Source: Escherichia phage CMSTMSU. Taken from it: a DNA stretch of 64,000 bases. Numbering within the stretch: position 1 is the first letter of the stretch; each line of letters opens with the position of its first letter. A program made the position numbers and the translations under genes. Below the pieces are notes generated by a model, which saw only the letters and a list, made by a program, of their open reading frames with translations, was not told where the DNA came from and did no database searches. Of this stretch, positions 7,355 to 41,732 are shown piece after piece. The stretch is from the sequence record MH494197.1. The stretch is one strand, 5' to 3'.

Positions 7355-7381
7355 CATTATACAGTACTGAATGAGTTTGTC
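7355..7381 (-). promoter_or_regulatory. sigma-70 promoter, TTGACA-N16-TATAAT with CAGTACTG in spacer
   Basis: minus strand TTGACAaactcattcagtactgTATAATg. Confidence 0.65.
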
Positions 7382-7384
7382 AAC

Positions 7385-7762
7385 TCAAAATAAATTCATT
7401 TCATGTGCGTATTGTGGTTCAAGATGCGATAAGTTTTTGAAGCTTTCTTTCAACTCAGCATCATCTACATACACCGTGCGTACATTCCCCATAGTGAAAC
7501 CTACCCACACAGTCATGTCACCAGTCCCTAAGCGTGGCATTGATAGCGAACCATCAGGTGAAACATCAAACGCTACACTGAAGTCATCAGTAACAACGTC
7601 TGAACCATTTTCGAGAATAATACATCCACTATCTTTAAGCTTCTGAATGTGGATAGCAGCCTCTACAGCACGTTTGAAGTTATAGTAAGACTCTTTATCC
7701 TCAAACATTGATTGTTTAATCAGACGCTTGTTTAGCTCGGTTACTTTGTGCATTTGACGCAT
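7385..7762 (-). CDS. hypothetical protein (125 aa)
   Basis: intact ORF. Confidence 0.6.
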   Translation of the reverse strand: MRQMHKVTELNKRLIKQSMFEDKESYYNFKRAVEAAIHIQKLKDSGCIILENGSDVVTDDFSVAFDVSPDGSLSMPRLGTGDMTVWVGFTMGNVRTVYVDDAELKESFKNLSHLEPQYAHEMNLF

Positions 7763-7792
7763 TACTTATCCATCTCCCACAGTTGTAGAATT

Positions 7793-8017
7793 TCATAAGA
7801 GCCGGTGGTGCTGGATTCCTGATCTCAGGAATTGAGTACTTTTAGGATTACCACCAGCATTAAATTCGTCAAGTAATGATTCCAGTTCGCGACGATCCTG
7901 AACAACATAAACACAATCACCTGAACCTTCTTCGAGAATCATTTCACTTCCTGCACAATCCCATACTGTTGAGATACATAGAATCTCTTTTGTATTTTTA
8001 TTACGCAATGCAAACAT
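7793..8017 (-). CDS. hypothetical protein
   Basis: 74-aa ORF. Confidence 0.45.
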   Translation of the reverse strand: MFALRNKNTKEILCISTVWDCAGSEMILEEGSGDCVYVVQDRRELESLLDEFNAGGNPKSTQFLRSGIQHHRLL

Positions 8018-8025
8018 AGTAATCC

Positions 8026-8229
8026 CTATCGATTTGGCATTTTATCTCGTAATTTCACAAGATAATCAATCACGGTACATCCTGAAATAAAGGTAATATA
8101 AGTACTGAAAAATCCTACCAGAATAAAGGCAACAAGCGTACTCCCATTTGGTTCTTCAGCTTTAATACCAATGATACCATCAGATGCAGTGAAAAATGTA
8201 GACATAAACGTTAGACAGATGTACATCAC
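8026..8229 (-). CDS. small membrane protein
   Basis: 67-aa hydrophobic ORF. Confidence 0.4.
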   Translation of the reverse strand: MMYICLTFMSTFFTASDGIIGIKAEEPNGSTLVAFILVGFFSTYITFISGCTVIDYLVKLRDKMPNR

Positions 8230-8369
8230 TAATAAGAATTCATGTTCTAATGACGGATAAAACGGTCAAAAGTTTATAAAATTTAAAGTACAGTAGGAGT
8301 ATACCAACAAAGGCATAGAAAGTAAACAGTGTTGTTATGATATATGATATTAAATTTAAATTATACATC

Positions 8370-8660
8370 TCAACGCTCCGGTAGATTATCACGTAATGTT
8401 TTGATTCGATTATACAATTTCATTGCTACATTCCCAAATAAACCAGAACCCATTACTAAAATGTATGCGATGATCATAGTAATAATTACAATAGTACCTA
8501 GACTGTAATGTACTGCACTGATACCCATTATTGTTTCTACAATGATGTGAGCAACAGAAATCACCAAAAGTACTACTACAATTGGATGATTTGGATACAT
8601 TCGGTTAAACAATGTTTTGTACTTAAAGAAGTACAGTACTCCACCAAATAAGAAGTACAC
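8370..8660 (-). CDS. membrane protein
   Basis: 96-aa hydrophobic ORF. Confidence 0.45.
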   Translation of the reverse strand: MYFLFGGVLYFFKYKTLFNRMYPNHPIVVVLLVISVAHIIVETIMGISAVHYSLGTIVIITMIIAYILVMGSGLFGNVAMKLYNRIKTLRDNLPER

Positions 8661-8719
8661 AATGTAGATTGATGCAACGGCATAAGCAAACGCATTAGTG
8701 TAAAAATCATTATCAATCC

Positions 8720-8983
8720 TTACTTTTCAGGGATTTTATTACGCCACTCATCGATGCGATGAAGCAGTTTAAAGAGCAAAAATATTGGAACTGTAGCTAT
8801 CATAGTAGCAATTGTTAGTAATGTCAACACCGATACGAGATTTAATTCGTCCGTACTATATCCACATACCAGTGCTTCAATTATCCCCACGTACATGCAC
8901 AGAACATCAAAATGAAATTGGTGCATCGTAGTATATGCGTTGATACAAGGTCGTGTATCGGAAGAATGCAATAATGTAACCAA
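8720..8983 (-). CDS. membrane protein
   Basis: 87-aa hydrophobic ORF. Confidence 0.45.
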   Translation of the reverse strand: MVTLLHSSDTRPCINAYTTMHQFHFDVLCMYVGIIEALVCGYSTDELNLVSVLTLLTIATMIATVPIFLLFKLLHRIDEWRNKIPEK

Positions 8984-9063
8984 ACATGTAATACACCCAA
9001 ACTAACGATACTATATAAAATGATACCTTATTAATTAATTCAAAATGATGTTCCATTTTACCC

Positions 9064-9366
9064 CTACATATATTCTAAGAATAATGTATTAGCTTCGTCT
9101 ATGTTCTTAAGATAATACATGTAATACAGATTTGGTTGTCCGTCTTTTGAACTCAAATCAAAGTACTTTAAACTATGCACCTTCATGACAAAAACAAATA
9201 ATGACTTAAAACCAATCTCACCGTACTTAATAAACAGTTCATCTAAATGAATGTAACTCTTAGTTTCAGATAATTCCTTCACATCAGCTTCAATTTCTTG
9301 TAAGCGAAGTTTACCGATTAAGTTTTCAAATGAACGCATGATCTTGTTCCTTATGCTGGTACACAA
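9064..9366 (-). CDS. hypothetical protein
   Basis: 100-aa ORF. Confidence 0.45.
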   Translation of the reverse strand: MCTSIRNKIMRSFENLIGKLRLQEIEADVKELSETKSYIHLDELFIKYGEIGFKSLFVFVMKVHSLKYFDLSSKDGQPNLYYMYYLKNIDEANTLFLEYM

Positions 9367-9520
9367 TTTTTTATAATGAATACACGTTTCATGAATGAAC
9401 TTTCATATACGTACTTCAGTTTACCATTTTCACGCATACGATGAAACACATCTTTACCGCTAGTACTCCATGTTGAACCAGTCTCTGCATCAACATTGTT
9501 CATTACACCAGATGTTACGT

Positions 9521-9763
9521 TTACCCGTACTTGAAGCTAAAGGTACTACCTTCTTCTACCAGAGGGATTGGTGTACTACGTTCATGTTCCAGTACAAGTT
9601 TACTGCCGATGATGTTGTACGAAGTTATCTTGCATTTTAAAACACCCATCTCTTGTGCAGTTGGGTAATTCTTCTCAAACAAATCAGATACTTCATTTGC
9701 ATAACAAACTGAACTAATCATAAGAAGTAATGAACTGATAGAACGGAAAATAACTTTTAACAT
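9521..9763 (-). CDS. secreted small protein
   Basis: N-terminal signal-peptide-like segment; GGAGG RBS; promoter cassette upstream. Confidence 0.55.
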   Translation of the reverse strand: MLKVIFRSISSLLLMISSVCYANEVSDLFEKNYPTAQEMGVLKCKITSYNIIGSKLVLEHERSTPIPLVEEGSTFSFKYG

Positions 9764-9789
9764 GTTTGCCTCCAGTAGTTGATGAAATG

Positions 9790-40217: not shown

Positions 40218-40387
40218 GCTTTTTATTCATCGGTACACGATATGCATCAGTACTTCTTCGTCGAGTTCAGTACTTAAATATGCTTTGTACATACACTTAA
40301 CACGTATAACATCCCACATTCTAGAATCTAATGGTAGATAATAAGGATTCCACTTTATTTTTGGCGTTTCATCCACTCTTCATGTGT

Positions 40388-40561
40388 CATATTCGTACCA
40401 GTAGTTCAATTAAGTACATTTCATATGCTGGATCGTTGATAAGTTTATCATACAGATGTGGCTCTGAAATGAATTCCCAATGATACTTTAGCCATTTACC
40501 GATACCCGAATATCTAAAATTAATATCATTCATCCATTCTTCATGTGTCATTTTCGTACCA
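40388..40561 (-). CDS. MTHEEW-family small protein, copy B (~55 aa)
   Basis: hand translation MTHEEWMNDINFRYSGIGKWLKYHWEFISEP...; stop overlaps ATG of a truncated third copy. Confidence 0.4.
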
Positions 40562-40712
40562 TTATTTCAATAAAGAACCACGGATACACTTCATGATTCA
40601 TAAGTTTATCGTATTCTGCTGGGTCTGATATGATTTCCCAATGATATTTTCGCCAACTACCGATACCCGAATATCTAAAATTAATGTCATTCATCCATTC
40701 TTCATGCGTCAT
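40558..40712 (-). CDS. MTHEEW-family small protein, copy A (~54 aa)
   Basis: hand translation MTHEEWMNDINFRYSGIGSWRKYHWEIISDP...; ATGA overlap with copy B. Confidence 0.4.
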
Positions 40713-40735
40713 GGTTTAACCTTTAATTAAAATTG

Positions 40736-40814
40736 GCCGGGCGACAGGACTCGAACCTGCATACTCCAGTTACTCGATTAACGACGATTTAGAAGACCGT
40801 TGAGATACGCCCGG
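40736..40814 (-). tRNA. tRNA-like gene, atypical fold, anticodon unresolved
   Basis: perfect 7-bp acceptor CCGGGCG/CGCCCGG and T-arm GCAGG-TTCGAGT-CCTGT, but D and anticodon arms do not fold canonically by hand. Confidence 0.45.
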
Positions 40815-40818
40815 ATTT

Positions 40819-40907
40819 TGGCGGTGAAGGTGAGATTTGAACTCACGGAGGACTTTCACCCTCGACGGTTTTCAAGACCGTTGCATTAAACCACTCTGCC
40901 ACTTCAC
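40819..40907 (-). tRNA. tRNA-Ser (UGA), long variable arm, CCA encoded
   Basis: acceptor GGTGAAG/CTTCACC, anticodon arm ACGGT-CTTGAAA-ACCGT, T-arm GTGAG-TTCAAAT-CTCAC. Confidence 0.7.
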
Positions 40908-41019
40908 CAGTACTAATAATTATATCACATCTTTATAGTCTGTTCCAATATTTATGATTCGGTTTCGGGATTAAATTTTATAAATTCATCTTTATGTTCA
41001 TCTTCAATTGCAATATCTT

Positions 41020-41241
41020 CTACGTCTTCAGGCCAGATTGTGGTGTCCCTTGGTAGAAGCGATAGTTATCGAATTCTGCACTACGTGTTCTTCCCTGTTC
41101 CCAACCAATAGTACAGTCATGATATACATCACCACTACGTGTACGAATGCTTATTGAGTCTTGTGTTTCATAAAGAACGTCAATGCGTGTGTTACGATTT
41201 GTATTGAATTTTTCAAAATGCATAGTAATCCCCAATAACAA
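41020..41241 (-). CDS. hypothetical protein
   Basis: 73-aa ORF. Confidence 0.45.
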   Translation of the reverse strand: MLLGITMHFEKFNTNRNTRIDVLYETQDSISIRTRSGDVYHDCTIGWEQGRTRSAEFDNYRFYQGTPQSGLKT

Positions 41242-41244
41242 TTG

Positions 41245-41463
41245 TTATTCTTGTGGTTTAGTTACACCAACACCAATAATACTTTTAATATCAATATGGA
41301 TATTAGCAAGTTCATTACTGTCAAACGGGTTAGTTTCAGTTACAACAACAGTGGTGTCATTAACTAAAACTACTGAACCTTTTACACGGTATCCCTGAAG
41401 GAGTACTTGTACATTGTCACCAGCGTTTAATGAGTTAATAACTTCTAATAGAGTAGATTCCAT
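41245..41463 (-). CDS. hypothetical protein
   Basis: 72-aa ORF. Confidence 0.45.
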   Translation of the reverse strand: MESTLLEVINSLNAGDNVQVLLQGYRVKGSVVLVNDTTVVVTETNPFDSNELANIHIDIKSIIGVGVTKPQE

Positions 41464-41473
41464 TTTATTTTCC

Positions 41474-41671
41474 TTACGGTTTACTATTTTTACGTTTTTC
41501 TGATTCGGGTACAGTTTTCATTTCACCAATACATAGTTCCATGATGAGTACACCTTTGTCATTATAACGTACTACATCTTCAATGTCAAAATGTCTCGCA
41601 CTATGAACAACTTCAATACATGCATCATCGGGATATGATTCCAATAATGCTACAAGTTCTGCTTTAGTCAC
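41474..41671 (-). CDS. hypothetical protein
   Basis: 65-aa ORF; GAGGAA RBS; promoter upstream. Confidence 0.45.
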   Translation of the reverse strand: MTKAELVALLESYPDDACIEVVHSARHFDIEDVVRYNDKGVLIMELCIGEMKTVPESEKRKNSKP

Positions 41672-41705
41672 TTTGGATTCCTCGTAGGTTTATTTATCTG
41701 AAGTG

Positions 41706-41732
41706 ATTATAGCAAAATACTGAGGTTGTCAA
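41706..41732 (-). promoter_or_regulatory. sigma-70 promoter, TTGACA-N15-TATAAT
   Basis: TTGACAacctcagtattttgcTATAAT directly downstream of the tRNA-like element. Confidence 0.5.

Follow-up and report, generated by a model that had tools for sequence, protein, structure and literature searches.

AGTACT as a highly iterated palindrome of Enterobacterales-infecting RaK2-like jumbo phages and a recurrent box in their early promoters

Why should a jumbo coliphage carry the same 6-bp palindrome every few hundred base pairs, mostly inside its genes and at a few places pressed against the core elements of its promoters? The question is raised by a 64,000-nucleotide stretch of Escherichia phage CMSTMSU (MH494197.1), hereafter the window, which was analyzed over its whole length and in which positions are counted from the first letter. 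A model's reading of the letters alone (the sequence-only reading) had singled out a set of promoters whose spacers end in an AGTACT-containing palindrome, had judged by eye that AGTACT is several-fold more frequent than base composition predicts, and had offered two explanations: an operator for a dimeric regulator, or a site for a DNA-modifying or nicking activity. Here we find that the word is enriched in genes and intergenic DNA alike and across four phage genera, with its promoter copies making up a small fraction of the whole. We tentatively favor, at a confidence somewhat short of even, a reading in which (C)AGTACT(G) is a highly iterated palindrome, held at high density at the DNA level across the genomes of the RaK2-like jumbo phages of Enterobacterales and read by a two-fold-symmetric, clade-specific factor. 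Searches of open-access papers on RaK2, CBB, Sharanji and the clade at large turned up no mention of the motif.

The window holds 165 copies of AGTACT, from 234-239 to 63408-63413, which amounts to about one copy per 388 bp or about 2.6 per kb. Base composition predicts 21.9 copies, an order-2 Markov background 37.5 and an order-3 background 65, such that the enrichment is 7.5-fold over composition and 4.4-fold over order 2, and the z-score of the word ranks first among all 4096 hexamers of the window under both order 0 and order 2. The excess judged by eye is thus borne out by exact counts, and was understated. The octamer CAGTACTG is found 40 times, compared with 0.84 ± 0.88 (maximum 3) in 100 dinucleotide shuffles, or roughly 48-fold more than expected. 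The core is exactly AGTACT, with any one mismatch cutting enrichment to 2.5-fold or less, and its boundaries are sharp, those of an exact 6-bp palindrome as for a Type II restriction-modification target (ScaI-type AGTACT). Immediately outside it, C on the left and G on the right are favored (about 45-50%) and the reverse pair is disfavored, with a weak TT/AA preference further out; when the sites are oriented by the coding strand, these two flanking bases, C at -1 and G at +1, are equally frequent. This symmetry of the flanks with respect to the coding strand argues for duplex DNA read by a two-fold-symmetric factor and not for an RNA signal. A hairpin or cruciform element was considered and rejected, as the palindromic arms reach only 0-1 bp past the core in 150 of the 165 sites and the one long palindrome is that at 41846-41863.

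By megablast the window belongs to an Asteriusvirus-like (RaK2-like) jumbo coliphage, with 97% identity to Escherichia phage fEgEco12 (PP777464.1) and about 85-87% to PBECO4, and it covers an early region, a long run of small, mostly unannotated genes nearly all on the minus strand. It is separated from fEgEco12 by 786 substitutions and by some 280 one-base deletions, mostly in homopolymer runs (A5, T5, C3), which look like uncorrected long-read assembly error and not like biology. Many of its open reading frames are frameshifted because of these deletions, and the sigma-factor gene (e.g. 24521-25480, minus strand) is spread across four frames. Frame-dependent analyses were run on the intact orthologous fEgEco12 sequence (loci L001 and L002; 156 genes). 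There AGTACT occurs 166 times, compared with 37.7 ± 5.5 (maximum 50) in 200 synonymous shuffles and 24.9 ± 4.7 (maximum 39) in 200 shuffles of codon order. The two outcomes that the sequence-only reading had named as fatal to its claim, a word at its expected frequency or occurrences fully explained by codon usage, are thus both contradicted by the counts. Genic copies fall in all three reading frames (73/35/58), and density is 3.2 per kb in intergenic and 2.6 per kb in coding DNA. Ser-Thr dipeptides are spelled AGT-ACT in 73 of 132 instances (55%, against 18 expected) and are themselves 1.55 times commoner than amino-acid composition predicts; the word is likewise used in 33 of 80 [KQE]-Tyr-[FLSYCW] contexts (41%) and 58 of 123 x-Val-Leu contexts (47%). 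Together, the excess over synonymous shuffles and the dipeptide usage indicate a pressure at the DNA level, with enough force to alter the sequences of proteins. There is next to no chance that the excess follows from codon usage, from amino-acid composition or from a general bias in oligonucleotides: although AGT, ACT, GTA and TAC are moderately used codons, and although an order-4 Markov model, which already holds AGTAC and GTACT, predicts most of the count, both sets of shuffles stay far below the observed number, every frame contributes, intergenic density at least equals genic density, and the word is depleted in PA5oct and T4, relatives of similar G+C. With the dipeptide counts, the two shuffles rule out an artifact of this kind.

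The enrichment extends well beyond the window. In four genera of Enterobacterales-infecting phages, namely Asteriusvirus (8.1-fold), Alcyoneusvirus RaK2 (6.7-fold), Eneladusvirus (Yersinia phage fHe-Yen9-03; 5.6-fold) and Mimasvirus GAP32 (6.3-fold), no hexamer is more over-represented than AGTACT, which is depleted in the related jumbo phages XacN1 (0 copies, 7.6 expected) and PA5oct (1 against 10.3), in T4 (4 against 13.6) and in a 50-kb sample of E. coli K-12 (3 against 11.6). Enrichment in four genera, set beside avoidance in their relatives, T4 and E. coli, marks the trait as clade-specific, old and opposite to the usual avoidance. In absolute terms the phages hold 2.6-3.0 copies per kb and the E. 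coli sample 0.06, a difference of about 40-fold, with the word over-represented in self and rare in the host. Of the window sites, 71% are intact in PBECO4, compared with 50% for composition-matched hexamers (n = 118; a difference of about 4.5 sigma). At the greater distance between RaK2 and fHe-Yen9-03, the orthologues compared, which share 50-77% protein identity, carry 37 and 30 copies, of which 8 are common, and the differences often arise via amino-acid changes. The density of AGTACT is held while single sites turn over between genera. As a separate observation on the vocabulary of these genomes, GCGC has no copy in the window, where 59 are expected, and none in the PBECO4, RaK2, fHe-Yen9-03 and GAP32 loci, and is present in XacN1 and PA5oct; some 27 GC-containing 6-bp palindromes likewise have zero copies in the window, and GATC (0.54-fold) and CTAG (0.42-fold) are also low.

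Along the genome the copies are dispersed. Counts per gene follow a Poisson distribution (chi2/df 1.01), every gene of at least 600 nt has a copy, and only the 20 nt ahead of start codons are empty. Spacing is near-Poisson as well, except for an excess at 16-25 bp (23 pairs against about 11 expected outside the terminal repeat) that matches the spacing of the two-box promoters described below; cooperative arrays of sites were rejected on these grounds. fEgEco12 carries 662 copies over 220 kb (3.0 per kb), late structural genes included, with a density 2-2.5 times higher in its first 20 kb, which correspond to the direct terminal repeat of about 20.7 kb known in relatives (PMC11895373). One block of that genome, 30001-35000 (G+C 0.30), is without any AGTACT, and an adjoining tandem array of paralogues of about 70 residues (20001-25000) has few; such blocks may be recently acquired or fast-duplicating DNA in which the word has not yet accumulated.

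A strict sigma70 scan returned about 60 promoter-like sites on the coding strand of the window, and in five or six of these AGTACT stands 1-2 bases upstream of TATAAT, about 30 times as often as even its raised genomic density would give at a single offset. All five promoters of the sequence-only reading exist, on the minus strand and with small errors of coordinates, that given as 7355-7381 lying at 7356-7383. The latter is a sigma70-type early promoter of the form TTGACA-N16-TATAAT (TTGACAAACTCATTCAGTACTGTATAAT) in which CAGTACTG at 7362-7369 fills the 3' end of the spacer, and promoters of the same type and strand lie at 18169-18196 (TTGACAAACGTTTGTAGTACTGTATAAT), at 22107-22134 (TTGACATAAGATATCAGTACTGTATAAT, with CAGTACTG at 22113-22120) and at 40190-40217 (TTGACTAAATAGTTCAGTACTGTATAAT, with CAGTACTG at 40196-40203). 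The claim that a palindromic box closes the spacer on its 3' side holds for the position of the box but needs two corrections: at 18169-18196 the box that abuts TATAAT is TAGTACTG (AGTACT at 18176-18181), not a perfect palindrome, and the promoter that had been placed at 39712-39740 has a spacer of 17 nt, with CAGTACTGA before TATAAT. This fifth promoter in fact spans 39712-39745 on the minus strand and carries two boxes 20 bp apart, AGTAC-TTGACT-N10-CAGTACTG-A-TATAAT, where AGTACT at 39740-39745 overlaps the first T of the -35 element and AGTACT at 39720-39725 sits in the spacer. Two further minus-strand sites are a weaker promoter-like sequence at 29555-29582 (TTGAAA-N16-TATTAT), whose spacer holds CAGTACTG at a distance of two bases from the -10 element, and one at 38959-38992 in which AGTACT overlaps the -35 element (AGTAC-TGGACA ... 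TATAAT). Boxes thus abut the -10 or the -35 at 5-7 promoters of the window, overlapping core promoter elements.

The two-box layout of 39712-39745 recurs in the terminal repeat of fEgEco12 and in the early region of RaK2. In the former, the promoters of small genes carry AGTACT at two fixed places, often together and then 20-22 bp apart: a -10 box (AGTACT-G-TATAAT) centered at about -16.5 and a -35 box (AGTAC-TTGCAA or AGTACT-A-TTGACA) centered at about -36.5, each present in 22 of 65 promoter-like sites. The corresponding counts are 21 and 11 of 40 sites in the RaK2 early region, 6 and 2 of 104 in the window, and 2 of 153 for each box in the 50-150 kb part of fEgEco12. An exact 17-mer from the boxed promoters retrieves the RaK2 early region (5 copies in 5 kb) and 121Q-type contigs in IMG/VR; the RaK2 architecture reads AGTAC-TTGACA-N10-AGTACT-G-TATAAT, with the box kept and the remaining spacer variable, and the same design is found in a third lineage. 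The boxed promoters represent a predicted immediate-early promoter type of the clade, concentrated in its terminal repeat.

An operator for a dimeric regulator, as the sequence-only reading proposed for a palindrome abutting the -10 element, is plausible at those promoters, a class conserved in RaK2 and in the third lineage. It covers a small subset only: 5-6 of the 165 window sites (less than 5%) lie at promoters and more than 90% outside them, most of these intragenic, the sites are Poisson-distributed over genes, and away from the early regions there is no association with -10-like or -35-like hexamers. With so few promoter sites and a Poisson spread, the operator abutting the -10 is a minor part of a genome-wide, clade-wide iterated palindrome. 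Silencing of cryptic intragenic promoters was likewise rejected, since outside the early regions neither TAnnnT nor TTGACA is in excess at any offset from AGTACT.

Longer palindromes are built on the same core. The sequence-only reading had listed the 12-bp perfect palindrome TTCAGTACTGAA three times; the element exists, but in five copies (about 0.02 expected in the window), and two of the three listed positions were off by 1 and 8 bases. A sequence scan places it at 35429-35440, at 37410-37421 inside the 14-bp palindrome ATTCAGTACTGAAT, at 54635-54646, at 55613-55624 and, starting at 41849, within the 18-bp perfect palindrome TTCTTCAGTACTGAAGAA, centered on AGTACT, at 41846-41863. Perfect palindromes of 18-22 bp centered on AGTACT, such as GGGAATCAGTACTGATTCCC, also occur in the RaK2 early region (locus L015, 1457, 4377, 5264 and 9452), where they sit between the promoter and the ribosome-binding site of several early genes and, as RNA, would form hairpins with a GUAC loop. 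An unrelated second promoter cassette of the window has a GC-rich hairpin spanning the -35 element and the spacer (AAAGGGTTGACTTCGGTCAGCCCTTTTGCTATAAT; about 2660, 4629, 5344, 9795, 12047, 12824 and 16401, minus strand) and resembles a terminator joined to the promoter that follows.

How might such a word be read? The symmetric flanks, the shuffles and the conservation point to a palindrome that is recognized as duplex DNA and is under selection. The factor that would recognize AGTACT is two-fold symmetric and specific to the clade in our reading; the likeliest candidate is a homodimeric DNA-binding protein, encoded by the phage or delivered with the virion, whose recognition surface is short. 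Precedents in scale are MetJ and CcdA, homodimers that read palindromes of 6-8 bp. Many weak, interchangeable sites could let such a factor coat, mark or organize the phage DNA, and a dimer seated on boxes near -16.5 and -36.5 would collide with sigma and exclude RNA polymerase, and the earliest genes would thereby be shut off. Should the boxes act positively, the factor that reads them would have to be of host origin or injected, since at time zero the phage has yet to make any protein.

Several points weigh against this interpretation. Among 286 proteins searched with Pfam (148 window-equivalent proteins and the 138 open reading frames of the first 50 kb of fEgEco12), we found no helix-turn-helix, ribbon-helix-helix, AbrB, Phd/YefM, TetR or other DNA-binding domain. 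The sharp 6-bp specificity and the Poisson spacing are equally expected of an enzyme target, be it for a methyltransferase, a nuclease or a topoisomerase; the fixity of the promoter boxes could in part stem from duplicated promoter cassettes and not from independent selection; the turnover of sites is as compatible with a drive from mutation or repair as with weak selection; and the host frequency of the word comes from a single 50-kb sample of E. coli K-12. Proteins annotated as a 'transcriptional regulator', 'HdfR' and a 'starvation-inducible DNA-binding protein' offered nothing convincing as the binder. A weak lead, at 15303-15829 in the fEgEco12 terminal repeat, is a gene for a protein with a ParE-like toxin domain (PF24732, E = 6e-11), followed by an open reading frame of 72 residues with a faint winged-helix match (E = 0.16). 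The stretch ahead of this small open reading frame reads TTGAC-AGTACT-N10-AGTACT, and its annotated start probably lies inside the promoter.

The main rival is an origin linked to a methyltransferase, akin to that discussed for the cyanobacterial highly iterated palindrome HIP1. In this view an orphan methyltransferase or other base-modifying enzyme of the phage acts on AGTACT, or on the GTAC inside it, and the word has been amplified through an epigenetic function or through biased repair. A Type II-like hexamer whose single-mismatch variants drop to 2.5-fold or less, its Poisson dispersal, the precedent of orphan methyltransferases that read the inner sequences of HIP1 (PMC4390886, PMC5861425), the presence of several phage methyltransferases, the window's C5 enzyme and one of the PF05869 Dam family among them, and the resistance of RaK2 DNA to many restriction enzymes (PMC3622015) all speak for it, and still we regard it as unlikely. 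The C5 cytosine methyltransferase of the window (PF00145; about 50796-51656, minus strand; locus L002, 15944-16804), the only methyltransferase there, aligns over its whole 286 residues with the catalytic domains of mammalian DNMT3A and DNMT3B, better than with bacterial M.HhaI or M.HaeIII, and is probably CpG-specific; bisulfite analysis of RaK2 reported methylated cytosine in CpG (PMC3622015), and the cytosine in AGTACT does not belong to a CpG. This enzyme was for these reasons rejected as the reader of AGTACT, and the DNA-modifying or nicking activity put forward by the sequence-only reading, while conceivable, gains no support. Biased repair of the very-short-patch type was also rejected, as the C-to-T deamination product AGTATT/AATACT is not depleted (0.93-fold). 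The approximately 280 homopolymer indels and 786 substitutions that separate the window from fEgEco12 show no clustering at AGTACT; this is weak evidence against modification there, and sequencing errors induced by modification at the word were rejected on the same ground. Methylation alone leaves the fixed boxes of the immediate-early promoters unexplained. As for the second enzyme, the gene at fEgEco12 61064-61588 (locus L006, 11064-11588), annotated as a 'type I restriction-modification methyltransferase subunit', encodes a small adenine methyltransferase of the phage Dam family (PF05869), for which the PDB has no relative.

Less likely again is that AGTACT is read by a DNA-processing enzyme, as a Chi-like signal that stops or attenuates a nuclease, a preferred T4-type topoisomerase II site or a nicking site. 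A nuclease might destroy motif-poor host DNA, GTAC might correspond to the 4-bp stagger of a topoisomerase, or a nick might load replication or late-transcription factors. For all of these it is the density of the word and not its position that would matter, in line with the 40-fold higher density in phage than in host-sample DNA and with the 2-2.5-fold rise in the terminal repeat, where host Chi sites are also dense (10 against 0.07 expected); the clade lacks GCGC, suggesting that word content already separates self from host, and it encodes a T4-like topoisomerase II and RecB/Cas4-like nucleases. Known Chi-type signals, however, are asymmetric and strand-biased, whereas AGTACT is palindromic with symmetric flanks, and an enzyme site leaves the fixed -10 and -35 placement in early promoters unexplained. 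The Chi cluster is an observation in its own right: the ten copies of GCTGGTGG lie on one strand of fEgEco12 1-20000, the window has two (7851 and 18335, minus strand), and the arrangement suggests that they protect the genome end from RecBCD. A very improbable alternative turns on SlmA, the nucleoid-occlusion protein of the host, whose site GTGAGTACTCAC has the identical AGTACT core (PMC3020112): the phage would recruit SlmA or titrate it in order to block or manipulate cell division. The enrichment is indeed confined to phages of Enterobacterales, and the related phages of Pseudomonas and Xanthomonas avoid the word; yet SlmA requires G1, T2, A4, G5 and a purine at position 3, and the favored phage flank is TTC, with a pyrimidine (C) at that position. 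Over more than 340 kb of phage sequence there is not a single GTRAGYRCTYAC site, GTR-AGTACT half-sites are depleted in fEgEco12 (12 against 31 expected), and no SlmA homologue was found in any phage of the clade. Host SlmA sites were rejected accordingly, the core matching but the required flanks being absent or depleted. The reading in which a clade-specific dimeric factor recognizes AGTACT accommodates both the dispersed copies and the promoter boxes, and remains the one we prefer.

A broader proposal, which we consider doubtful but worth stating, is that RaK2-like jumbo phages mark themselves by word content and not by base modification: one AGTACT per 350-400 bp would be read by a phage factor, GCGC and most GC-rich palindromes would have been purged, and the promoter copies would time the shut-off of the first genes. 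If true, this self-mark would be a sequence-encoded counterpart of the hydroxymethylcytosine logic of T4, would show how a relative of T4 that lacks modified cytosine can tell its own DNA from that of the host, and would make this the first functional iterated-palindrome system with an accessible genetic handle. Palindromes of the HIP1 type have gone unexplained for thirty years, and one is now found in a lytic phage, with a short cycle, a clear temporal program and DNA that is easily isolated. In practical terms AGTACT is a simple diagnostic k-mer for the clade, and the immediate-early cassette AGTAC-TTGACA-N10-AGTACT-G-TATAAT should be useful for annotation.

Set against known systems, the promoter boxes resemble the short operators of ribbon-helix-helix proteins and antitoxins, such as AGACGTCT of MetJ, GTATAC of CcdA and TGTACA of YefM, where multiple boxes overlap core promoters. 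These too are perfect palindromes of 6-8 bp, some of them centered on GTAC or TA, and their readers are small dimers, but they are limited to a few promoters, whereas more than 90% of the AGTACT sites lie within genes, and no such domain was found by Pfam among the 286 proteins. phi29 p6 and SPO1 TF1 are viral proteins that bind all along their genome, most densely near its ends, and repress early promoters. The same logic is proposed for the AGTACT factor, with the difference that p6 and TF1 read DNA shape or hydroxymethyluracil and AGTACT is a sharp hexamer. Chi and the DNA uptake sequences of Neisseria and Haemophilus (DUS/USS) are self-marking genic words whose density matters and not their position. 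AGTACT shares with them its over-representation in genes and its power to distinguish self DNA, being rare in the host sample, but they are asymmetric and often strand-biased, while AGTACT is palindromic, has symmetric flanks and also occurs in promoters. The SlmA binding site is, like the phage element, a palindrome with a central AGTACT that is dispersed on a chromosome and bound by a dimeric protein (PMC3020112). The phage sites are without its outer G-T and its purine at position 3, and number about 1000 per phage genome as opposed to about 50 in E. coli.

Among known systems AGTACT comes nearest to HIP1 (GCGATCGC), the cyanobacterial highly iterated palindrome whose function is unresolved (PMC4390886, PMC5861425). 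Both are short perfect palindromes in genome-wide excess that lie in genes in all frames, shape the choice of codons and amino acids, are conserved above background yet turn over, and are specific to a lineage. AGTACT, with its octamer CAGTACTG, is another, AT-rich word, found in a virus and not in a cell, which makes it an analogue of HIP1 and not a member. Its spacing is close to Poisson and not quasi-periodic, and no methyltransferase was matched to it. What the phages add to this kind is a different word, a viral setting and a role in promoters, with the palindrome fixed in place at the predicted immediate-early promoters of the clade.

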